Shown in pieces: positions 45,294 to 60,254 of a DNA stretch of 64,000 nt. A model generated the notes under the pieces. It did not search any database and was not told the DNA's origin. It was given only the letters and a program-made list of their open reading frames with translations. Where the stretch lies: the NCBI GenBank assembly GCA_030837965.1, contig JAUTXP010000013.1, forward strand, positions 11,080-75,079, given 5' to 3'. A program made the position numbers and the translations under genes. Within the stretch, counting starts at the first letter, position 1, and each line of letters begins with the position of its first letter. This stretch comes from Acidimicrobiaceae bacterium (GTDB lineage: Bacteria > Actinomycetota > Acidimicrobiia > Acidimicrobiales > JAUTXP01).

Positions 45294-46063
45294 GGTCGGG
45301 CTCCGGTCGTCGAGGTGGTGGCGCCCGGTGCGGTCGTCGTGGTGGCGCCCGCCGCGCCCGGCGCCGTGGTGGTCGTGGCCCCGCCCGCGGCCGTGGTGCT
45401 GGTGGTCGATGGCGTGGCCGTGGCCCCTGCAAACCCGGCAGGGATGGACCGCACGAACATGCGGGCGTTGATGCTCGCCGTCAGCGCGCCGGTGTTCGGG
45501 TCGGCGTTGACGTTGAGGGCGTCGGTGACCACCAGTCGGGGCAGGCGGTCGAGCCGGTTGAGGAAGTCCATCACCTGGAAGTACCCGCCCTGCACCTGGA
45601 TCACCAGGGTGACCTCAGCAGGTGGGGTCGCCACCGCCGCGGGCGGGGTCGCAGTCGTCGCCGCCGTAGTGGGGGTCGTGCCCGACGCGGGGGCGGTGGT
45701 CGGCGTGGGCGTCACCACCGCGGTGGCCGGGGCCTTGGGCTCGCTCGGTGCAATGGACATGAAGTTGATGCCCGACTTGGTGGCCGCGTCGTTGACGTCG
45801 ACCAAGAACTGACCGAGGTTGGGCGTGTCAGGGATGGCCGTGCGCAGCGTCTCCAACTGCGCCCGGCGCAACGGTTCGGATGCCCGCACGTCGCGCAGCC
45901 GCCTGACCTGAGCCTGGAGCTGCTGCTCCTGGGCCTGGGCTGCGGCCGTTCGCTTCTTGGCCTTGTCCAGATCGCTCTTGGCCGGGCTCCACAACAGGAG
46001 GTACCAGCCCAGGAGGATCACCACCGCGGCGATGGCGGCGAAGAGGATGACGCGCCGACTCAC
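45290..46063 (-). CDS. pilO: Type IV pilus assembly protein PilO
   Basis: TM plus coiled coil, AIPDTPNLGQFL, GGYFQVMDFLNRLDRLPRLV. Confidence 0.85.
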   Translation of the reverse strand: MSRRVILFAAIAAVVILLGWYLLLWSPAKSDLDKAKKRTAAAQAQEQQLQAQVRRLRDVRASEPLRRAQLETLRTAIPDTPNLGQFLVDVNDAATKSGINFMSIAPSEPKAPATAVVTPTPTTAPASGTTPTTAATTATPPAAVATPPAEVTLVIQVQGGYFQVMDFLNRLDRLPRLVVTDALNVNADPNTGALTASINARMFVRSIPAGFAGATATPSTTSTTAAGGATTTTAPGAAGATTTTAPGATTSTTGARP

Positions 46064-47772
46064 TGCGGGCTCCCATTCGTGTAGCGGTCGATGCGTCGGG
46101 ACACGGCCTGGCTGGTGAGCCTGGCCGTCGACTGGAAGGTGACGATCTGGCTCGCCCCCTCGCCGCTCTTGGTCGAGTTGGGCACCCACAGTCCGGTGAA
46201 CTCGGTGAGGTCGCCGATGCGGAACAGCCAGCGGGCCGTCGACGTCTGGTCGAAGCCCTTGCCCTGGAACGTGATCTGGCCGATGCCCGCGGCCGCAGTC
46301 GGCGTGCCCGCGGCCACCGGCGTCCCTGGTGCCGTCTCGGCCGCCTTTTGGCCTTGGAAGCTGACCAGCCACACGTCGGCCGGGATGACGGTGGCGATGT
46401 CGTTGAACACCCGCGTCCAGGCCACGTCGTTGCGCAGCACGCCGGTGACTTGGGCTTGACGCTGCTGGAGGTCGGTCTGGAGGGTGGTCACGTCCTGGAG
46501 CCGGGCCAGTTCGGCCTGGCGCTGGGCCGCGACCTGCTCGGCCTCCCGGGCCTTGCCCTTCTCCGTTTTCACCTTGCCCTGCTGGGCCAGCCAAAGGGCC
46601 AGGAGGAGGGCGGCCACGCCGCCCACGCCCACGAACGCGGCCGCGGCCTGGCGGCGCTGCTCGCGCACCACGGCCACTTCCTGGGGCAGCAGCGAGATGC
46701 GGCGCACGCCCTTGGTCGGCTCACCGGCCAAGGCCAGGCCGATGGGCACCGTCATCAACGGCTCGTACTCGGCGAGCTGGGCCTGCGACAGGCGCACGGC
46801 ACCGATCTTCAATCCGGCCAGCGGATGAGCGGGCTCGACCCGTCCACCCAGTTGCGACTGGAGCCGCTCCATGAGACCGGGGAGGCGGCTGCCGCCGCCG
46901 GTCACCAGCACCCGCCCGATGGGCGACGACTGCGACTGGGCCAGGTAGTAGTCGAGCGAGCCGCGGATCTCCTCGACCAGCGGGCTCAGCCGATCGGACA
47001 CGACCTGGCCGGCGCGGGCCAAGGACGCGTCGCCCGAGCCGATGTCGGCTCTGCGCTTGAGGTCTTCAGCGCTGTCCAGGTCGACGTCGAGGTCGCGGGC
47101 GATGGCCTCGGTCACGTCGTCGCCCCCGACCAGCAGGACGCGCACGAAGCGGGGGATGCCCTGCTCGTGCACGACCACGTTGGTGACGCCGCCGCCGATG
47201 CACACGATGGCCTCGGCGCTGCCGTCGGTCGTGAAGGACTGGGTGGTGCGGTCGAACAAGGACCGGACCAAGGCGAAGGGGATGACGTCGACCGCGGTGG
47301 CCGACAGGCCCGCGCCCTGCACCGCGGCCAGATGGGTCCTGACCATGTCCCGCTGGGCCGCGGCCAGCAGGATGCGCATGCGGGGCTCGCCGTCCGGGCT
47401 CACCAGCTCCTCGAGGATCTGGGAGTCGAGGATGGCGTCCTCCACCGGGATGGGGATGAGTTCTTGGGCCTCGAACTGGAGGGCGGCGCGCAGGTCCTGC
47501 TCGGTCATCTGCGGCAGCTCGGCCTGGCGCACGATGACGCGCTGGTTGGCCACGCCGACCACGACCCGCTTGGTCTTGAAGCCGCCCTCGCTCCACAGCC
47601 GCTTGATGGCGGCGGACACGGCGCCGACATCGGCCACCTCGCCGTCGCGAATGGCGCCGGGGGGCAGCGTCACCTGGGCGAAGCGCACGAGGGTGGGCTG
47701 CCCGCCGACCTGGAGCTCGACGGCCCGCACTGCGTAGGTGCCGAGATCGAGTCCAACGACCCTGGTCGGCAT
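46060..47772 (-). CDS. pilM: Fused PilM-PilN
   Basis: Actin-like PilM (VGLDLG, AQELIPIP, CIGGGVT, EIRGSLDYY, TGGGS, IGLAL) continues in frame into PilN (ISLLP, TM, WTRVFNDIATVIPADVWL). Confidence 0.9.
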   Translation of the reverse strand: MPTRVVGLDLGTYAVRAVELQVGGQPTLVRFAQVTLPPGAIRDGEVADVGAVSAAIKRLWSEGGFKTKRVVVGVANQRVIVRQAELPQMTEQDLRAALQFEAQELIPIPVEDAILDSQILEELVSPDGEPRMRILLAAAQRDMVRTHLAAVQGAGLSATAVDVIPFALVRSLFDRTTQSFTTDGSAEAIVCIGGGVTNVVVHEQGIPRFVRVLLVGGDDVTEAIARDLDVDLDSAEDLKRRADIGSGDASLARAGQVVSDRLSPLVEEIRGSLDYYLAQSQSSPIGRVLVTGGGSRLPGLMERLQSQLGGRVEPAHPLAGLKIGAVRLSQAQLAEYEPLMTVPIGLALAGEPTKGVRRISLLPQEVAVVREQRRQAAAAFVGVGGVAALLLALWLAQQGKVKTEKGKAREAEQVAAQRQAELARLQDVTTLQTDLQQRQAQVTGVLRNDVAWTRVFNDIATVIPADVWLVSFQGQKAAETAPGTPVAAGTPTAAAGIGQITFQGKGFDQTSTARWLFRIGDLTEFTGLWVPNSTKSGEGASQIVTFQSTARLTSQAVSRRIDRYTNGSPQ

Positions 47773-48132: not shown

Positions 48133-48163
48133 CTTTTCCACAGCAGCAGGTGCTGTGGAAAAG
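48133..48163. repeat. 31-bp palindromic REP-like element, copy 6 (inverted loop)
   Basis: CTTTTCCACAGCA-GCAGG-TGCTGTGGAAAAG right after pilD stop. Confidence 0.95.
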
Positions 48164-48164
48164 A

Positions 48165-48935
48165 TCAGAGGCCGTACCAGCGGAGGATGGGGCCGCCCGC
48201 GAACACGGCCAGCACGGCGCCCGCGGCCAGGAACGGGCCGAACGGGATGCGGTCCTTGCGGCTCCTGACCTTGGCTGCGATGAGGGCCAGGCCGATCACG
48301 CTCGACGTCAAGAAGGCGAGGAACAGCCCCACGAGGACGTAGCCGACGCCGAGCCAGCCCAGGGCCACCCCGTTCAGCCCGGACAGGCGCACGTCGCCGA
48401 AGGCCATGCCCTTGGGGACGGCGAAGTGGACGAGGAACAGCAGCACGAACCCGAGGGCGCCCCCGGCCCCGGCCCGGGCCAAGTCGTCCCACCGGCCGGT
48501 CAGGGCGGCGGCGCCGACCAGCAGCACAGCCAGCCCGGCCAGCGTGGGGTACACGACGCGGATGGGCAGGAGCTGGTGATCGAGGTCGATGGCGCTCAAC
48601 ACGACGAGGCCGGCCACCCACACGAGGAAGGCGGGCAGGGCCCAGTCGGCGCCGAAGCGGGCCGCGACCGCCGCGAACAAAGCGCCGGTGAGCAATTCGA
48701 CCAGCGGGTAGCGGGCCGAGATCGGATTGGCGCAGAAGTGGCACTTGCCCCGCAGGGCCAGCCACGAGACGACCGGGATGTTGTCGATGCTGCGCAACTG
48801 GTTCCCGCAGTTGGGACAGTGCGAGCGCGGGTGCACGATCGACTCCCGGCGCGGCACCCGCCAGATGACCACGTTGAGGAACGATCCGACCAGCAGGCCG
48901 AACACCGCGCATCCGGCCACGAGGAACGCGGTCAT
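48165..48935 (-). CDS. pilD: Prepilin peptidase/N-methyltransferase (A24)
   Basis: GSFLNVVIWRVP, RSHCPNC..DNIPVVSWLALRGKCHFC, ISARYPLVEL, AIDLD, GMAFGDVRL, IPFGPFL. Confidence 0.95.
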   Translation of the reverse strand: MTAFLVAGCAVFGLLVGSFLNVVIWRVPRRESIVHPRSHCPNCGNQLRSIDNIPVVSWLALRGKCHFCANPISARYPLVELLTGALFAAVAARFGADWALPAFLVWVAGLVVLSAIDLDHQLLPIRVVYPTLAGLAVLLVGAAALTGRWDDLARAGAGGALGFVLLFLVHFAVPKGMAFGDVRLSGLNGVALGWLGVGYVLVGLFLAFLTSSVIGLALIAAKVRSRKDRIPFGPFLAAGAVLAVFAGGPILRWYGL

Positions 48936-49653: not shown

Positions 49654-49749
49654 CCTCCAGGCGGCTCGGCCGGCCTTCCGTCGTCGTTGACGGTGTGGGC
49701 CCCGGAGCTTTGCGTCCCCGCCTTCCGACGGGTTTGCCATTGACAAGAG
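49654..49749 (-). ncRNA. Cyclic di-GMP-I (GEMM-I) riboswitch, copy A
   Basis: GGCAAA-CCCGTC-GGAA-GGCGGG-GACGCAAAGC...GCCGAGCCGCC matches the GEMM core GGCAAACC..GNRA..GGGACGCAAAGC. Confidence 0.9.
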
Positions 49750-50499: not shown

Positions 50500-50594
50500 C
50501 CTCCAGGCAGCTCGGCCGGCCTTCCTCTCCGCCGAGAGGGATGGGCTCCGTGGCTTTGCGTCCCCGCCTTCCAACGGGTTTGCCTTTGTCAGAG
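50500..50594 (-). ncRNA. Cyclic di-GMP-I (GEMM-I) riboswitch, copy B
   Basis: GGCAAA-CCCGTT-GGAA-GGCGGG-GACGCAAAGCCACGG...GCCGAGCTGCC; distal P3 CCTCTC/GAGAGG replaces CCGTC/GACGG. Confidence 0.9.
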
Positions 50595-51311: not shown

Positions 51312-51407
51312 CCTCCAGGCAGCTCGGCCGGCCTTCCGTCGCCGTTGACGGTGTGGGCCCCGGTGCTTTGCGTCCCCGTCTCCCAACGGGTTTGCCCTTG
51401 TTCGAAG
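51312..51407 (-). ncRNA. Cyclic di-GMP-I (GEMM-I) riboswitch, copy C
   Basis: GGGCAAA-CCCGTT-GGGA-GACGGG-GACGCAAAGCACCGG...GCCGAGCTGCC. Confidence 0.9.
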
Positions 51408-52199: not shown

Positions 52200-53423
52200 C
52201 TACTTGATGAGCTTGATGATGTTGAACATCGGCATGTAGAGCGACACGACCATGCCGCCGACGGCGCCGCCGAGGACGACGATGAGGGCAGGCTCGAGCA
52301 GCGACGTCAACGCGGCCACGGTGGCCTCGACCTCTTGCTCGTAGAACTCGCCGATCTTGTCGAGCATGGTGTCGACCGCGCCCGTCTCTTCGCCCACGGC
52401 CAGCATCTGCGTGACCATGGCCGGGAAGATGGCGTGCTCGGCCATGCGCTTGGCGATGGGCTCGCCCTGCTTCACGCCGTCCTGCACGTCGTGCACGGCG
52501 CGCGAGGCCACGGTGTTGCCCACCGTGTCGGCCGTGATCTCCAACGACTCGAGGATGGGGACGCCGGAGCGCAGCAGCGAGGCCAGCGTGCGGGCGAAGC
52601 GGGTGAGCGCCGTCTTGTGCACGAGCTTGCCGAAGACCGGCACCTTCAGCTTGAAGGCGTCGAACACGGCCCGGCCCTTGTCGGTCTCGATCCACCGCTT
52701 GAACAAAAAGACGGACACGGCCATGAGCACCAGCACGATGGGGAAGGCGGTGACCAGCACAGAGGACACCAGCAGCAGCAACCGGGTCGGCAGCGGCAGC
52801 GTCCCGCCCAAGTCGTGGTAGAGGCCCTTGAACATCGGGACGATGAACAACAGCATGGCCGTGACGATGCACAGCACCAGGGCCAGCACCGCGACCGGGT
52901 AGGTCATGGCCGACTTGATCTTGTGCTTCAGCTCGACCTGCTTTTCGAGCGTGTCGGCCAACTGCAACAGCGTCTGGTCGAGCACGCCGCCGGTCTCGCC
53001 CGCCCGCACCATGGCGATGTAGAGGCGGCTGAACACCTTGGGATGGCGGCCCATGGCCTGGGAGAGCGACGAGCCCTTCTCCACGTCTTGGCGCACCTCG
53101 TGGACCACGCCGGCCAAGGCCTTGCTCTCGGTCTGCTCGGCCAGGATGTTCAAGGCGCGAAGCAGCGAGAGGCCCGAGTCGATCATGGTGGCGAACTGGC
53201 GGTTGAACACGGCCAGGTCCTTGAGCTTGACCTTGCCCGCGCCCATGCCAGGGATGCGCAGCTCCTTCTGGAGCCCGCCCGTGGCCTTCTTGTCGATGGC
53301 CAGCGGGACGTAGCCCATCTGGCGCAGCTTGTTGGCGACCAGCGTGGTCGAGTCGGCCTCGAGGGACCCCTCGAGCACCTTCCCCTGCTTGTCGCGGACC
53401 TTGTACTGGTAGGTCTCAGCCAT
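52200..53423 (-). CDS. pilC: Type IV pilus platform protein PilC (GspF family)
   Basis: FNRQFATMIDSG, AGETGGVL, KIKSAMTYP, FARTLASLLRSGVP, GEETG, LLEP, YMPMF. Confidence 0.96.
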   Translation of the reverse strand: MAETYQYKVRDKQGKVLEGSLEADSTTLVANKLRQMGYVPLAIDKKATGGLQKELRIPGMGAGKVKLKDLAVFNRQFATMIDSGLSLLRALNILAEQTESKALAGVVHEVRQDVEKGSSLSQAMGRHPKVFSRLYIAMVRAGETGGVLDQTLLQLADTLEKQVELKHKIKSAMTYPVAVLALVLCIVTAMLLFIVPMFKGLYHDLGGTLPLPTRLLLLVSSVLVTAFPIVLVLMAVSVFLFKRWIETDKGRAVFDAFKLKVPVFGKLVHKTALTRFARTLASLLRSGVPILESLEITADTVGNTVASRAVHDVQDGVKQGEPIAKRMAEHAIFPAMVTQMLAVGEETGAVDTMLDKIGEFYEQEVEATVAALTSLLEPALIVVLGGAVGGMVVSLYMPMFNIIKLIK

Positions 53424-53434
53424 CTCTTCGTCTC

Positions 53435-55033
53435 CTAACGGGCCCCGCCGATGAGGCGGCGGAGGTCGTCTTCATTGGCACAACGCTCGATGGCCATCTC
53501 CAAGGAGATGGCGCCTCGGCGCACCAGGTCGGCGAGCGACATGTCCATGGTCTGCATGCCGTAGCGGCCGCCTGCCTGCATGGCCGAGTAGATCTGATGG
53601 GTCTTGCCCTCACGGATGAGGTTGCGGACCGCGGGTGTGGCCACCAGCACCTCGGATGCAACGGCCCGGCCTCGGGCGTTCATCGTCGGGATGAGCTGCT
53701 GGGTGACGATGCCTTGCAACGAGGCCGCGAGCTGCACCCGCACCTGCTGCTGCTGATGGGCGGGGAACACGTCGATCACGCGGTCGACCGACTGGGGCGC
53801 GTCCTGCGTGTGCAGGGTGGCGAAGACGAGGTGGCCCGTCTCGGCCGCGGTCAGCGCGGTGGAGATGGTCTCGAGGTCGCGCATCTCGCCCACGAGGATC
53901 ACGTCGGGGTCCTGGCGCAGGACGTGCTTCAAGGCGTTGGAGAAGGAGTACGTGTCCTCCCCCACCTCCCGCTGGTTGATCACCGCCATCTTGTGGTGGT
54001 GCAAGAACTCGATCGGGTCCTCCACCGTCATGATGTGGCAGGGCTTGCGGGCGTTGATGATGTCGATCAGCGAGGCCAGGGTCGTGGACTTGCCGGAGCC
54101 GGTCGGGCCGGTGACGAGCACCAGGCCGCGGGGAAGGTCGGCGAACTGGTTGACCGAGGGCGGCAGGCCGAGGCGGTCCATGGGAACGATCTCGAAAGGG
54201 ATCACGCGCATGACCGAGCCGACCGAGTCGCGCTGGAGGAAGACGTTCACGCGGAAGCGGCCCACGCCCGGCACCGAGTGCGACGTGTCCAGCTCCAACT
54301 CGTTCTCGAAGCGCTCCCGCTGCTTCTGGGTGAGGATGGCGTAGATCATCCGCCTGATCTCCGAGCCGTTCATCATCGGGAACTCGGTGAGGGGCTTGAT
54401 CTCGCCGTGGATGCGCACGCTGGGGTGCAGGCCGACGGTCAGGTGGAGGTCGGAGCCTCCGAGGTCGACCACCCGCTCGAGCAGGTCGTTGACATGCAGC
54501 TCGCCGCGCATGCCCTCGGCGCCGAGCATGTTGGGCGCCTCGGACTGCGAGGACTCGTCGGCCACGGTGATCTCGAGGTCGCCGTCCTCCTCGGAGGCCG
54601 GGGGGCCGTACATCTGGTTCACGACCTTGCGCAGGTCGCCCCGAGTGGCCAGCGCGGCCTTGATGCTCCAACTGGTGGCCTGCTCGAGCTCGGACTTGGC
54701 GTCGGGGTTGCTGGGGTCGAGCATGGCGACCAGCAGGTCGCTGCCCTCGATGTCGACGGCCACGGCCTGGTGCTTGTGGGCCAGGGCCGCGGGGATCAGC
54801 CGGTCCAGGGTGGGATTGACGTTGCGCACGTCGAAGTCGACGAAGTCCATGCCGACCTGATGGGCGACCGCGGCGACCAGGTCCTTCTCCCCCACCAGCC
54901 CTTCGGCCAGGAGGAGTTTCGAAAGGGGAACGCCCTCGGTCGCCTCGCGGTCGAGGAGCTGTTCGAGCGTGTCCCGAGAGAGGACTTTCCGCTCAACGAG
55001 GAATTCGCCCAGTCGGCGCGAAGCTGCCTGCAT
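53435..55033 (-). CDS. pilT: Retraction ATPase PilT with extra N-terminal MshEN/GspE-N domain
   Basis: SDLHL, RFRVNVF, GPTGSGKSTT, EDPIE, RQDPDVILVGEMRD, PilT signature AVRNLIREGKTHQI and GMQTMD; ~175-aa N-extension starting RRLGEFLVE. Confidence 0.93.
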   Translation of the reverse strand: MQAASRRLGEFLVERKVLSRDTLEQLLDREATEGVPLSKLLLAEGLVGEKDLVAAVAHQVGMDFVDFDVRNVNPTLDRLIPAALAHKHQAVAVDIEGSDLLVAMLDPSNPDAKSELEQATSWSIKAALATRGDLRKVVNQMYGPPASEEDGDLEITVADESSQSEAPNMLGAEGMRGELHVNDLLERVVDLGGSDLHLTVGLHPSVRIHGEIKPLTEFPMMNGSEIRRMIYAILTQKQRERFENELELDTSHSVPGVGRFRVNVFLQRDSVGSVMRVIPFEIVPMDRLGLPPSVNQFADLPRGLVLVTGPTGSGKSTTLASLIDIINARKPCHIMTVEDPIEFLHHHKMAVINQREVGEDTYSFSNALKHVLRQDPDVILVGEMRDLETISTALTAAETGHLVFATLHTQDAPQSVDRVIDVFPAHQQQQVRVQLAASLQGIVTQQLIPTMNARGRAVASEVLVATPAVRNLIREGKTHQIYSAMQAGGRYGMQTMDMSLADLVRRGAISLEMAIERCANEDDLRRLIGGAR

Positions 55034-55165: not shown

Positions 55166-55196
55166 CTTTTCCACAGCACCTGCTGCTGTGGAAAAG
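55166..55196. repeat. 31-bp palindromic REP-like element, copy 7
   Basis: Exact copy between pilB and pilT. Confidence 0.95.
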
Positions 55197-55221
55197 ATGG
55201 GGTGTCAGGCGGGGTAGAGGT

Positions 55222-55251
55222 CGGGGCGGGGCGGGGCGGGGCGGGGCGGGG
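55222..55251 (+). repeat. (CGGGG)6 tandem repeat
   Basis: Six perfect 5-mers abutting the pilB stop. Confidence 0.9.
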
Positions 55252-56937
55252 CTAGGCCACGACCCGGAGGATCTCCTCCAGGGAGGTCTTGCCGTTGCGG
55301 ACCTGGATGAGGCCCGCCTGGCGCAGCGTGAGCATCCCCTGGGCCATGGCCATCTTCTTGATGTCCTCGGAGTGCTCCCGGTCCACGATCAGGCGCTCGA
55401 TGTCCTCGGTCACGGTCAGCACCTCGTGGAGGGCGAACCGGCCCAAATATCCGGTCTTGCCACAGGCCGAGCAGCCCACGGCCCGGAACAGCTCGGGCTG
55501 CTCCTCGTCGGCGAACAGCTCGACGTCCCAGCCCGCGGACTGGAGCTCGCTGGCCGTGGCCCGGTACGGCTCCCTGCACTTGTCGCACAGCTTGCGGGCC
55601 AGGCGCTGGGCCACGATGCAGTCCAGGGCGCTGGCCACGAGGAAGGGCTCGACACCCATCTCGATGAGCCGGGTGGGCGTGGTGGCCGCGTCGTTGGTGT
55701 GCAGGGTGGACAGCACGAGGTGGCCGGTGAGGGCGGCCTCGATGGCGATGGTGGCCGTCTCCTTGTCCCGGATCTCGCCCACCAGCACGATGTCGGGGTC
55801 GGACCGCAGGATCGAGCGCAGCGCGGCCGCGAAGGTCATGCCCGCCTTGTTGTTGACCTGGACCTGGTTGATGCCGTTCAGCCGGTACTCGACAGGGTCC
55901 TCGACGGTGATGATGTTCTTCGAGTCCTCGTTGAGCACGTTCAGCGTGGCGTACAGGGTGGTCGACTTGCCCGAGCCCGTGGGCCCCGTGACCAGGATCG
56001 TCCCGTACGGCTTCTTGTAGGACTGCTCGAACCGCTCGCGCGCCGACTCCAGGAACCCCAGGTCGGTGAGCTTCAGCAGCGCGGTCGACTTGTCCAGGAT
56101 TCGCATGACGACCTTCTCGCCGTACACCGTGGGCAGGGTGGCGACACGCAGGTCGACCGCCTTGCCCCCGATGACCACGTTGATGCGGCCGTCCTGGGGG
56201 ATGCGCCGTTCGGCGATGTTGATCTCGGCCATGATCTTGAGGCGCGAGATGATCCCGGACTGGATGTTCTTCGGCGGGCGCATCTTCTCGTGCAGCACGC
56301 CGTCGATGCGGTACCGGACCCGCACGTCCTTCTCGCTGGGCTCGATGTGGATGTCCGACGCCCGCTCGGCCACCGCCTGGGTGATCAACAGGTTGACCAG
56401 CTTGACGATGGGCGCGTCCTCGACGACCTCCTTGATGTTGGAGAGGTCGTCGTCCACCTCGTACTCGCTCGACGCCTGGGCCGTGATGTTCTCGGCCTCG
56501 CCGTCCATGCGGGTGTGGCGGTCGATGGCGGCCAGGATCGAGTCGGGCGTGGCCATGATGACCCGCACGTCGCTCTTGGTGATGGTCCGGATGTCGTCGA
56601 TGGCGAAGACGTTGCCGGGGTCGGCCATGGCCAGGATGAGCTTGCCGTGCTCCCAGCCCACAGGCAGCGCCTGGTAGCGCCGGGCCAGTGACTCGCTGAT
56701 GAGGCCCACGGCGCTGGAGTCGATGCTGTAGTCGGCCAGGTCGACGTACTCGAGCCCCAACTGGGGGGCGAGGATGCGGTACAGGTCACCTTCGGTGACC
56801 AGGCCCCGCTCGATCAGGATGCGGCCGAGGAACTTGCCCGTCTTCGACTGTTCGTCGAGCGCGTCGTCCAGCGCCTCTCTGGAGAGGAGTCCTGCCGCCA
56901 CGAATTGGGCGCCGAGGAGGCGGTTTTCATCCGACAT
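55252..56937 (-). CDS. pilB: Extension ATPase PilB (GspE family)
   Basis: MshEN-like N-terminus, ASDIHIEP, RYRIDG, ERRIPQDG, GPTGSGKSTTLY, LRSDPD, tetracysteine Zn motif. Confidence 0.96.
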   Translation of the reverse strand: MSDENRLLGAQFVAAGLLSREALDDALDEQSKTGKFLGRILIERGLVTEGDLYRILAPQLGLEYVDLADYSIDSSAVGLISESLARRYQALPVGWEHGKLILAMADPGNVFAIDDIRTITKSDVRVIMATPDSILAAIDRHTRMDGEAENITAQASSEYEVDDDLSNIKEVVEDAPIVKLVNLLITQAVAERASDIHIEPSEKDVRVRYRIDGVLHEKMRPPKNIQSGIISRLKIMAEINIAERRIPQDGRINVVIGGKAVDLRVATLPTVYGEKVVMRILDKSTALLKLTDLGFLESARERFEQSYKKPYGTILVTGPTGSGKSTTLYATLNVLNEDSKNIITVEDPVEYRLNGINQVQVNNKAGMTFAAALRSILRSDPDIVLVGEIRDKETATIAIEAALTGHLVLSTLHTNDAATTPTRLIEMGVEPFLVASALDCIVAQRLARKLCDKCREPYRATASELQSAGWDVELFADEEQPELFRAVGCSACGKTGYLGRFALHEVLTVTEDIERLIVDREHSEDIKKMAMAQGMLTLRQAGLIQVRNGKTSLEEILRVVA

Positions 56938-57033: not shown

Positions 57034-58218
<1,185 letters not shown>

Positions 58219-58250
58219 GGCTGACCTCCGGGCAACGACGACCTTCGCAA

Positions 58251-58278
58251 CCATCGGCAGGATCGGCCCTCGACTTCA
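58251..58278 (-). promoter_or_regulatory. Sigma-28-like promoter at head of pilus locus
   Basis: TGAAG-N17-CGATGG (GCCGATGG). Confidence 0.6.
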
Positions 58279-58350: not shown

Positions 58351-59187
58351 TCAGGGGCGGGAGGCGGCGATGGCGGCCAGGGCGGCGGCCGACATGACCT
58401 CCAGGGGCGGGTCCTCGCCCGTCCACAGCCTGAACTGGTGGGCGGCCTGGTGGATCAGCATGCCCAGGCCGTTGACCGCCACCGCGCCCTGGGCGCGCGC
58501 CGCCTCCAGCAGCGGTGTGACCGGCGGGTGGTAGATCAAGTCCACGATCAAGGTGCCGGGCCGCAACGACTCCACCGGAACGGGCATCCCGGGCGAATCG
58601 GGCATGCCCACGGGCGTGGCGTTGACGAGCACGTCGTACTCGACGTCGGCCGGGTCGTCGACTGCCCGGCCCACGCCCTCCCCCGCCAGCGCGGCCGCGG
58701 CCTCGGCCCTGGCCCGCGTCCGCCCGAACACGGCCACATCGGCCGCGCCGCCCTGGCCCAAGGCCCTGACCACGGCCCTGGCCGCCCCGCCCGCGCCCAG
58801 CACCAGGCAGCGGGCGCCCGCCGGGTCGAACCCCTCGTCCCGGCGCAGCGCGTCGAGCAGGCCCGCCCCGTCCGTGTTCTCTCCGACCAACTCGCCCGCG
58901 CGCAGCAGCACGCTGTTCACCGCGCCCAGATCACGCGCCGCAGGAGACAGCCGGTCGACAGCTCGGGCCGCGGCCTCCTTGTGGGGCATGGTCACCGACA
59001 TGCCCTCGATGCCGAGCGTGCGCATGGAGGTGACGGCAGCCTCGCCGTCCCCCTCGGCCACGTCGAAGGCGAGGAAGGCCCAGTCCAGGCCGAGGGCATC
59101 GAAGGCCGCGTTGTAGAGGGCGGGCGACAGCGAGTGCCGGATGGGCCTGCCGATCACGGCGGCCACGCGGGTGGCCGCGCTCAGCAC
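58351..59187 (-). CDS. aroE: Shikimate dehydrogenase
   Basis: HSLSP, SVTMPHK, AVNS, ENTD, GAGGAA, NATPVG, GLGMLIHQA. Confidence 0.95.
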   Translation of the reverse strand: MLSAATRVAAVIGRPIRHSLSPALYNAAFDALGLDWAFLAFDVAEGDGEAAVTSMRTLGIEGMSVTMPHKEAAARAVDRLSPAARDLGAVNSVLLRAGELVGENTDGAGLLDALRRDEGFDPAGARCLVLGAGGAARAVVRALGQGGAADVAVFGRTRARAEAAAALAGEGVGRAVDDPADVEYDVLVNATPVGMPDSPGMPVPVESLRPGTLIVDLIYHPPVTPLLEAARAQGAVAVNGLGMLIHQAAHQFRLWTGEDPPLEVMSAAALAAIAASRP

Positions 59188-60254
59188 AGCTTCTGCTGCC
59201 TGCACACGGCGACGGCCCGTTGGAACTCGGCGTCGGTGCTGGCGAAGGTGTGGTGCCCGGACTGGTCGGCCAGCACGTAGAACAGCCACGGCCCCGGCGT
59301 CGGGTTGAGCGCGGCCTGCAAGGTGGCCTCGCCCGGCGCGGCGATGGGCGTGGGCGGCAGGCCCGCGTGCAGGCGGGTGTTGAACGGCGTGTCCTTGGCC
59401 AGGTCGCTCTTGCGCAGCGGCTGGGTGGGCCGGTCCACGCCATAGCGAATAGTGGCGTCGATGCCCAGCTTGATGCCCTTCTGCAACCGGTTGTAGACGA
59501 CCCGCGCCACCATGCCCCGTTCGCCGGCCACCCGCGCCTCGCGCTCGATCATGGACGCCACGATCACCACTTGGTATGGCGTGAGCCCGACTCGGGCCTG
59601 CGACTGGTCCAGCCCCACCTGCGCGCCCACGTCGGCGAACACGTTGAGCATGCGCTGGAGGATGGCGGCCTCGTCCTCGGTGGGCTTGAGCTCATAGGTC
59701 GATGGGAACAGCAGTCCCTCCAAGTTGGTGCTGCCCGCGGGCAGGTAGGGCGACGTGAACTGCCCGCTGCGGGCCAGGTCCAAGAACTTGGCCGCCGACC
59801 GCCCTGGCAGCCGCCCCACCCGGTCGGCGATCTGCACCAGCGTGAGGCCCTCGGGGATGGTCAGCCGCTGCGACTCGGCCTTGGCCCCCTTGCCCAGCAC
59901 CGCCAACACGTCGTCGAAGTCGGCGTGCTTGTGCAGCTGGTACGACCCCGCCTGAAAGCCGCCTTCACCCTTGTACTTGGCGTAGAGCTTGAACAGGCGC
60001 GCGTTGGAGATCACGCCCTCGGCGTCGAGGATGGCGGCGATGCGCGCCGTCGACGCGCCCCGCGGGACGACGACTTGCACCTCGGCCCCCGGCGAGCCGG
60101 GACTGATCTGGCCCTTGGCCCATACCCCCACCGCGCCGGCCACCAAGAGGACGGCCACGGCCAGGGCGAGCGCGGCCTTGACGGCCGTGCGCCCGCGCCG
60201 GCGCGGCTCGGGGAAGGGCTCGAACACGATGGGCTCGTCGCGCACGTCCGTCAT
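59181..60254 (-). CDS. mltG: Endolytic transglycosylase MltG
   Basis: TM, TIPEG, LEGLLFPSTY, ASMIERE, YNRL, FNT..GLPPTPI, LFYV. Confidence 0.94.
   Translation of the reverse strand: MTDVRDEPIVFEPFPEPRRRGRTAVKAALALAVAVLLVAGAVGVWAKGQISPGSPGAEVQVVVPRGASTARIAAILDAEGVISNARLFKLYAKYKGEGGFQAGSYQLHKHADFDDVLAVLGKGAKAESQRLTIPEGLTLVQIADRVGRLPGRSAAKFLDLARSGQFTSPYLPAGSTNLEGLLFPSTYELKPTEDEAAILQRMLNVFADVGAQVGLDQSQARVGLTPYQVVIVASMIEREARVAGERGMVARVVYNRLQKGIKLGIDATIRYGVDRPTQPLRKSDLAKDTPFNTRLHAGLPPTPIAAPGEATLQAALNPTPGPWLFYVLADQSGHHTFASTDAEFQRAVAVCRQQKLC

Follow-up and report, generated by a model that had tools for sequence, protein, structure and literature searches.

A stretch of 64,000 nucleotides from an Acidimicrobiaceae bacterium (contig JAUTXP010000013.1; this whole stretch is called the window) carries a type IV pilus cluster, in which one gene was found to encode a predicted PilT retraction ATPase with an additional domain at its N-terminus. 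The N-terminal region of this protein, named MshEN-PilT here, is a real MshEN/GSPII (ND0+ND1) domain placed on a flexible acidic linker, and the protein is an ancient, clade-typical variant of PilT and no one-off. The analysis favours the explanation that the MshEN domain of PilT would act as a tethered handle for protein docking or regulation and not as a high-affinity receptor of cyclic dimeric guanosine monophosphate (c-di-GMP). The probability given to this explanation is about one half.

Reviews, in the parts that were available, assign the N1/MshEN domain to the extension (PilB-type) motors. A whole lineage bearing this domain on its retraction motor raises the question of how both motors alternate at the platform, and a second one, whether retraction can be regulated or anchored as extension is. 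The literature search gave no description of an MshEN-PilT fusion; the main text of Wang et al. 2016 holds no mention of PilT, while its Supplementary Tables 3-5 and Supplementary Fig. 3 may include such proteins.

Domain architecture of MshEN-PilT

The protein starts with MQAASRRLGEFLVERKVLSRD. Upstream of M1 only 15 codons are in frame before a stop (open frame of 547 residues), M1 is kept in 119 of the 120 close homologues, and the GC content at third codon positions (GC3), 0.93, is of coding type. The Pfam profile PF05157 (MshEN) matched residues 61-147 with 58.2 bits against a cut-off of 23.1, and reached 61.5 bits in the genome search. The AlphaFold model, made with an alignment of 56 rows, had a predicted local distance difference test score (pLDDT) of 87.5 overall and above 90 over residues 1-143. 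It revealed a four-helix bundle, then a three-stranded alpha/beta unit and then a low-confidence linker, the length and sequence of which are variable among the 120 homologues. The Foldseek matches of the modelled domain at E <= 0.001 (21, ranks 1-21) were, where shown, chains of MshEN, GSPII, PilB-N or XpsE-N or the PilB chain of the pilus-machine model 3jc8. The top match was GSPII-A of Thermus thermophilus PilF (9G1W, E 3.3e-9), and the MshE chain 5htl_B was matched with E 4.3e-9 and a template modelling (TM) score by target of 0.62. The sequence search of the PDB with the isolated N-domain returned T. thermophilus PilF (6f8l) and PilB chains (5zfr, 6olj, 5tsg, 3jc8) at the top and MshE next. 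The preliminary description of this DNA had claimed an MshEN/GspE-N domain on a PilT core at positions 54500-55033, which are residues 1-178 and comprise the domain with its linker. This claim is borne out by the Pfam score, the model, the Foldseek matches and the score of the core (TIGR01420, 483.4 bits); the domain might have proved not to be MshEN by hidden Markov model (HMM) or structure, and Pfam, model and Foldseek all gave MshEN.

The known N-domains place these features in context. With MshEN of Vibrio cholerae MshE (5HTL) and the PilB-type N-domains, the domain shares the two-subdomain fold, the Pfam family and the register of two 24-residue motifs; it differs from them in standing on a retraction motor, in having K16, E30 and S38 for Gly, Gln and Gly, and in the absence of the 'DD' pair. 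PilF GSPII-A likewise has a residue other than Gly at position 3 of motif 2, with one fairly good and one degenerate motif, but it belongs to a triple-domain extension ATPase. The ND0/ND1 of Xanthomonas citri PilB in complex with PilZ (7LKM/7LKO; Foldseek E 4e-9 to 5e-9) is followed by an acidic linker like that of MshEN-PilT, although it is part of an extension motor with PilZ as partner, whereas no PilZ was found in the source genome.

Behind the linker, the PilT profile TIGR01420 aligned over residues 181-522, from profile position 2 to 342 of 343, with 483.4 bits, above the cut-off of 319.1, and reached 484.8 bits in the genome-wide search. The top PDB sequence match of the whole protein was the PilT chain 5zfq_A (421.7 bits, residues 180-531), and the canonical type IVa PilT chains 5zfq_A, 6ojx_A, 2ewv_A and 3jvu_A align with residues 180-531 end to end at 377-422 bits, with the same motifs and no zinc cluster. 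These solved chains have 356-390 residues and, in their best-matching stretch, no counterpart of residues 1-175; MshEN-PilT has 178 extra residues. It thus departs from the usual PilT plan of two domains, about 345-400 residues and no N1, having 532 residues with the MshEN domain at residues 1-143. The catalytic boxes are intact in sequence, namely Walker A GPTGSGKST (309-317), Asp box VEDPIEF, Walker B with the catalytic Glu DPDVILVGEMRD and His box TGHLVFATLHT; AVRNLIRE is present at 468-475 and GMQTMD at 492-497. The AIRNLIRE-type helix is a mark of PilT proper. Only two cysteines (332 and 518) are present, while the neighbouring PilB has five, a C-terminal cluster among them. The tetracysteine zinc site is absent, and the PilB/GspE profiles remained below their cut-offs (TIGR02538, 206 bits vs 675.65; TIGR02533, 153 vs 630.25). 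The automatic annotation of the homologues is PilT/PilU.

The genome-wide search with TIGR01420 gave four matches above the cut-off, and the three besides MshEN-PilT have no N-domain. Two of these paralogues (368 and 361 residues) are intact, yet without AIRNLIRE; the third (364 residues) has a degenerate Walker A, GPAASGVTT, and adjoins a GGDEF-EAL gene. Since MshEN-PilT keeps AVRNLIRE, whereas the short paralogues lack it or have a dead Walker A, its sequence identifies it as the main and catalytically intact PilT ATPase of the operon, with a predicted role in retraction.

The c-di-GMP motifs and the descent of the domain

The two motifs of the domain were compared with the relaxed c-di-GMP motif of Wang et al. 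2016, which consists of two copies of [RKPN]hGxxhhxx[GAS]hhxxxxhxxxhxx[QNKRYWST] separated by a 5-residue spacer. Motif 1 fails at positions 10 (K16) and 24 (E30) and motif 2 at position 3 (S38), and the 5-residue spacing is correct. Motif 1 retains R-L-G-E and both leucines, and motif 2 retains L, G10, L and Q. Set against this relaxed motif, the earlier reading of Gly to Lys and Gln to Glu in repeat 1 and of a repeat 2 without RLG was exact. At position 3 of motif 2, the 120 close homologues have Ser in 100, Pro in 11 and Ala in 9, and Gly in none.

The residue counts in a sample of the phylum, comprising 31 PilT-type and 28 PilB-type N-domains, followed the same direction. G10 of motif 1 is kept in 9/31 PilT-type and 24/28 PilB-type domains, Q24 of motif 1 in 4/31 and 18/28, G3 of motif 2 in 2/31 and 20/28, and Q24 of motif 2 in 11/31 and 18/28. 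The 'DD' pair of MshEN_C, which presumably includes the guanine-contacting Asp of MshE (the residue numbering being presumed as well), is found at both positions in all 28 PilB-type domains but in only 5/31 and 1/31 of the PilT-type. The strict motif expression was passed twice by none of the 31 PilT-type domains and by only 2 of the 28 PilB-type; its position 1 fails in most PilB-type domains, the PilB of the window included.

The published variants give a measure of these replacements. In MshE the backbone NH of the motif Gly3 donates a hydrogen bond to guanine, and binding by the variants G40I and G11L is poor, if it occurs at all, according to Wang et al. 2016. In PilF GSPII-B the Gln to Glu change at position 24 of motif 1 caused a 158-fold loss of affinity (PMC11731258). 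In the same study, isothermal titration calorimetry (ITC) showed no binding of c-di-GMP to PilF GSPII-A, which has one good and one degenerate motif. Deviation at the N-terminal arginines of the motifs appears to be tolerated, because GSPII-B binds at 6 nM despite K167 and L196 in their place (PMC11731258). As the canonical pocket seems degraded in MshEN-PilT and its close kin, we infer that the role of a high-affinity c-di-GMP receptor was lost.

The earlier idea that retraction is directly gated by the nucleotide is weakened by K16, E30 and S38, by the mutant precedents and by the free variation of these positions across the class; what stands in its favour is an HMM score at the cut-off and the strong motif in out-of-class relatives. 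Direct c-di-GMP gating by the MshEN-PilT of this window is consequently judged doubtful on sequence grounds. The c-di-GMP_motif profile NF053729, with a cut-off of 38 bits, gave 68.1 and 69.8 bits for PilT N-domains of an out-of-class family, 49.3 bits for another out-of-class one and 28.3 bits for a Microthrix-type paralogue (L074), compared with 54.5-58.5 bits for the PilB of the genome (56.8 in the comparison of isolated domains) and 74.3 bits for its second PilB. Because of the three out-of-class scores, a PilT N-domain competent for c-di-GMP is likely to exist elsewhere in the family, and this state is perhaps ancestral. The PilT N-domain family thus provides a natural series for tests, from strong c-di-GMP motifs (68-70 bits) through the borderline case of MshEN-PilT here (about 40) to the sub-threshold Microthrix-type paralogue (28).

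The fusion is widely distributed. All of the 120 best homologues (68-100% identity) have PF05157 MshEN together with PF00437 T2SSE; those with a source name are labelled as metagenome-assembled genomes (MAGs) of Acidimicrobiales, Acidimicrobiia or Actinomycetota. The representatives at 50% identity were also searched exhaustively, and the 80 of at least 445 residues among the best 150 matches were scanned; PF05157 was found in 17 of these, and 16 of the 17 are PilT-type by NCBIfam. Matches running from residue 9 or earlier to residue 528 or later were taken as colinear and full-length, and their counts are lower bounds from the best 150 matches per search. Of 200 further genomes of the class at least 49 have such a match, and of 370 genomes from other classes of the phylum at least 30 (G449 and G201 being flagged as unpublished). 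In the listed 150 matches from the 200 genomes of the class, all the colinear full-length ones are in open frame except one with a single TGA. Of 18 class loci, 13-14 have pilB upstream of the gene and pilC downstream of it, and 12 of 12 loci from outside the class share this order.

A quick maximum likelihood (ML) tree of 59 N-domains parted the 31 PilT-type from the 28 PilB-type by one branch with a Shimodaira-Hasegawa approximate likelihood ratio (SH-aLRT) support of 97. The MshEN domain was gained in a single event that predates the divergence of the phylum's sampled classes, and was kept with the pilB-pilT-pilC order. In a fuller tree the N-domains of five other PilT-type representatives group with the PilB-type domains, which suggests further, independent MshEN-PilT fusions elsewhere. 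A recent duplication of the N-domain of the neighbouring PilB was also considered and was rejected, since the two proteins share about 31% identity overall (31% across 496 aligned columns) and the split in the tree separates their N-domains.

The named carriers of the fusion include Microthrixaceae and 'Actinobacteria bacterium IMCC26256', a cultured organism with a complete genome (CP011489.1), so that a cultured carrier exists. A related subfamily, comprising L074 (from the Ca. Microthrix parvicella RN1 MAG), L075, L070 and P0134, has the Walker A Lys replaced (GPHGSGT/L) and has lost the second His of the His box and AIRNLIRE; its members are probably pseudo-ATPases, and they retain the N-terminal hairpin SSRRLGEFLV.RRVLSRD. 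Some MAG records titled Bordetella parapertussis, Bifidobacterium breve, Bifidobacteriaceae or Burkholderiales (L089, L090, L097, L106, L109 and L113) have an N-domain of the Acidimicrobiia type with 38-40% identity, and their bin labels look wrong. PilT cores with other N-terminal additions were seen among the representatives P0121-P0240, namely tandem PilT-PilT (for example P0122 and P0126-P0129), HEAT repeats (P0207, P0211), a cyclic nucleotide monophosphate (cNMP)-binding domain with MshEN (P0227) and two canonical MshEN domains (P0239), and many PilT N-terminal extensions among them have no Pfam match.

Candidate partners and competing explanations

In the favoured explanation the MshEN domain, tethered by the acidic linker, would keep the PilT hexamer at the cytoplasmic platform or position it there. 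Its partner would most likely be the PilM(-PilN) ring, by analogy with the binding of GspE N1 to GspL, and a regulator such as the neighbouring PATAN protein may be the alternative partner. The ATPases of the type II secretion system (T2SS) bind PilM homologues through their GSPII N-termini, and GSPII-C of PilF is required for the stimulation of its ATPase by PilMN (PMC6325625). ND0/ND1 of X. citri PilB is a module for protein docking that has no c-di-GMP motifs, binds PilZ, has a proposed PilM face and is attached to the core by an acidic linker of about 30 residues (PMC8389850). Foldseek matched MshEN_C weakly with N1 of EpsE/GspE from the complexes with EpsL/GspL (2BH1 and 4PHT; probability 0.97 and 0.96, E 0.17-0.3), the values for 2bh1_X being probability 0.97, E 0.17 and a TM score by target of 0.69 over 64 columns. 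EpsE/GspE itself, unlike MshEN-PilT, is a T2SS ATPase of the extension type. Given this homology of MshEN_C/ND1 to the EpsL-binding N1 of EpsE, it is plausible that MshEN-PilT competes with PilB for docking on PilM. A C-terminal extension gives the local PilM a GspL-like layout; PF05137 (PilN) is recorded for some of 120 PilM homologues, in which this extension is PilN-like, and the pilM product would be a PilM-PilN fusion. The conserved charged residues specific to the PilT-type domains lie on the first helical hairpin, with R6 and R15 each in 15 of 19, a basic residue at 16 and S19-R20-D21. That these hairpin charges are kept even in the Walker-A-dead paralogues of Microthrix type suggests that the domain has a binding role of its own.

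Several observations weigh against a docking handle that replaces a receptor. The invariant ND1 residues of the PilB type (D73, R87 and the DD pair) are not retained in the PilT-type domains, because of which PilT and PilB probably do not have an identical interface with PilM, and in Thermus no GSPII domain was essential for PilMN binding (PMC6325625). On the side of the nucleotide, MshEN-PilT strictly retains 9 of the 14 key positions of the motifs, and NF053729 scores at or just above its cut-off, with 37.8 bits for the whole protein, 40.4 for the isolated domain and 42.2 in the six-frame search. The single Gln to Glu mutants of PilF still bind c-di-GMP at 0.5-1 uM (PMC11731258). With 27 GGDEF matches in the genome, no PilZ domain found there and three c-di-GMP-I riboswitches in the operon, a c-di-GMP input to PilT would fit the context.

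The domain might still bind c-di-GMP, or a cyclic dinucleotide akin to it, at reduced affinity and function as its receptor, such that both opposing motors would read the messenger in addition to the control of the pilins by riboswitches. Besides the score of the domain alone, the residues retained in both motifs, the GGDEF, PilZ and riboswitch findings and the micromolar PilF mutants, it is favoured by the out-of-class PilT N-domains that score above the PilB of this genome and by the two canonical MshEN domains before the PilT core of P0239. The explanation is nevertheless considered improbable, as the full protein scores below the cut-off, position 3 of motif 2 is never Gly in the 120 close homologues and is even Pro in some of them, the key positions drift in the PilT-type domains while they are better kept in the co-resident PilB-type ones, the MshE Gly3 variants bind poorly, if at all, and PilF GSPII-A with its similar pattern does not bind (PMC11731258). 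In a fuller form of it, likewise improbable, the surviving first half-site would bind c-di-GMP or a related dinucleotide, which would thereby control the retraction motor directly. The operon would then have three levels of control, with riboswitches acting on the pilins and a receptor on each of PilB and PilT, and this would represent the ancestral state of the lineage, still strongly encoded in the out-of-class family.

The handle might also serve a dedicated regulator, for example a PATAN/DUF4388 protein, rather than PilM, or the domain might be an autoinhibitory lid folded on the PilT core; this is held to be unlikely, though several associations speak for it. A DUF4388 gene lies directly upstream of pilB here and a similar one in several relatives, the locus L029 has a PATAN gene immediately before an MshEN-PilT-like gene and no intervening pilB, and DUF4388-PilT fusions occur among the representatives (P0190 and P0121). 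The PATAN domains of Synechocystis bind PilB1 and PilC (10.1101/2021.06.11.447907), PilZ is bound by the X. citri ND0/ND1, and the charged hairpin that survives in the Walker-A-dead paralogues would suit such a partner as well, but only some of the loci show PATAN neighbours above 55-60 bits. A relic of evolution that no longer has a function would account for the drifted c-di-GMP residues and for an N-domain evolving faster than the core (28-69% vs 62-87% identity to MshEN-PilT in the same class loci). It is very improbable, in view of a domain that is full length and in frame, within an unchanged gene order, in two taxonomic classes or more, that has many positions invariant or nearly so in the 120 homologues and a confident fold prediction, and whose open frames show the single TGA exception among the matches listed for the class. 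Least probable of all is a mis-called extension motor of PilB type, or a bifunctional one. The N-domain is typical of extension motors and TIGR02538 aligns over residues 8-423, yet its 206 bits fall far below the cut-off, the tetracysteine cluster is missing, the protein bears the signature motifs of PilT, its sequence is matched best in the PDB by solved PilT chains, and a complete PilB gene lies directly upstream.

The pilus cluster and its DNA elements

The features of the window that concern MshEN-PilT are summarized in the table. The cluster has the order aroE, DUF4388/PATAN, pilB, MshEN-PilT, pilC, four pilin-like genes, pilD, pilM, minor pilins and aroC, and it is thereby bordered on both sides by genes of the shikimate pathway (aroE and aroC). 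The source genome is of 3.55 Mb and 97.9% complete. It has three MshEN domains only, those of PilB, of MshEN-PilT and of a second PilB on contig C64, the last of which has the best c-di-GMP motif score.

Table. Location of MshEN-PilT, its parts, the neighbouring genes and the DNA and RNA elements. Positions are those of the window, except for the paralogues, which are given by genome and contig.
Feature	Position	Strand	Basis and remarks
MshEN-PilT gene	53435..55033	-	532-residue open reading frame, stop codon included; Pfam MshEN + T2SSE; TIGR01420 483 bits; GC3 0.93
MshEN_N subdomain, residues 1-60	54854..55033	-	Four helices (model helices 2-14, 20-33, 37-44, 49-60; pLDDT 88-96); two degenerate 24-residue motifs (7-30, 36-59); NF053729 over 7-59
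MshEN_C (ND1) alpha/beta subdomain, residues 61-143	54605..54853	-	PF05157; three strands + three helices in model
Acidic flexible linker, residues 144-178	54500..54604	-	pLDDT 54-57; 10 acidic + 1 basic of 35 residues
PilT N2 + ATPase core, residues 179-532	53438..54499	-	Intact Walker A/B, Asp + His boxes, AIRNLIRE-type motif
aroE	58351-59289		Cluster flank
DUF4388 (PATAN) protein	57034..58254	-	PF14332 69.5 bits; directly upstream of pilB; alternative candidate partner
pilB, extension ATPase	55252..56937	-	561 residues, own MshEN domain; TIGR02538 651.8 bits, T2SSE 479.8, NF053729 54.5
pilC, platform protein	52200..53423	-	PF00482 T2SSF 218 bits, two stretches
pilD	48165-48935		Pilus cluster
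pilM	46060..47772	-	570 residues, C-terminal extension of ~220 residues; TIGR01175 219.5 bits over residues 5-349; candidate docking partner
c-di-GMP-I riboswitch aptamer	51315..51406	-	Pilin leader; RF01051 54.4 bits, gathering score 35
c-di-GMP-I-GGC riboswitch aptamer	50502..50593	-	Pilin leader; RF03167 60.2 bits, gathering score 59
c-di-GMP-I-GGC riboswitch aptamer	49656..49747	-	Pilin leader; RF03167 60.4 bits, gathering score 59
Palindromic repeat in pilB-pilT spacer (218 bp)	55167..55195	.	8 copies in window
PilT-family paralogue without N-domain (L002-L004)	G000 C12:9901-10932		TIGR01420
PilT-family paralogue without N-domain (L002-L004)	G000 C68:67191-68225		TIGR01420
PilT-family paralogue without N-domain (L002-L004)	G000 C64:40923-41939		TIGR01420

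The three riboswitches precede three tandem pilin genes just downstream of pilC and are the sole Rfam matches in the window. Since three aptamers of the c-di-GMP-I clan lie in pilin leaders, c-di-GMP is predicted to enter the pilus operon at the RNA level. The literature search on c-di-GMP-I-GGC gave nothing on the ligand of the GGC variant.

DNA contigs near-identical to the MshEN-PilT locus were found in one further soil-metagenome run (X2). Contigs from RNA libraries (at least 85% likeness) map mostly to the conserved ATPase core of many organisms and permit no inference on the transcription of MshEN-PilT. One RNA contig of 219 nt (X15) spans a portion of the N-domain region and has 28 differences from it, by which transcription of this gene is not shown.

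A near-perfect palindrome with a core of 29 nt occurs in 8 copies in the 64 kb, at 1798, 7592, 10450, 14415, 17742, 48134, 55167 and 58313, against 0 expected. Three of the copies are placed in spacers of the pilus cluster, namely pilB-pilT, pilM-pilD (48134-48162) and aroE-PATAN, and the palindrome looks like an intergenic element of the repetitive extragenic palindromic (REP) type. The scan of the pilB-pilT spacer for sigma-70-type promoters found none. Directly after the stop codon of pilB a run of CCCCGC repeats, at about 55215-55252 and read on the - strand, was observed.

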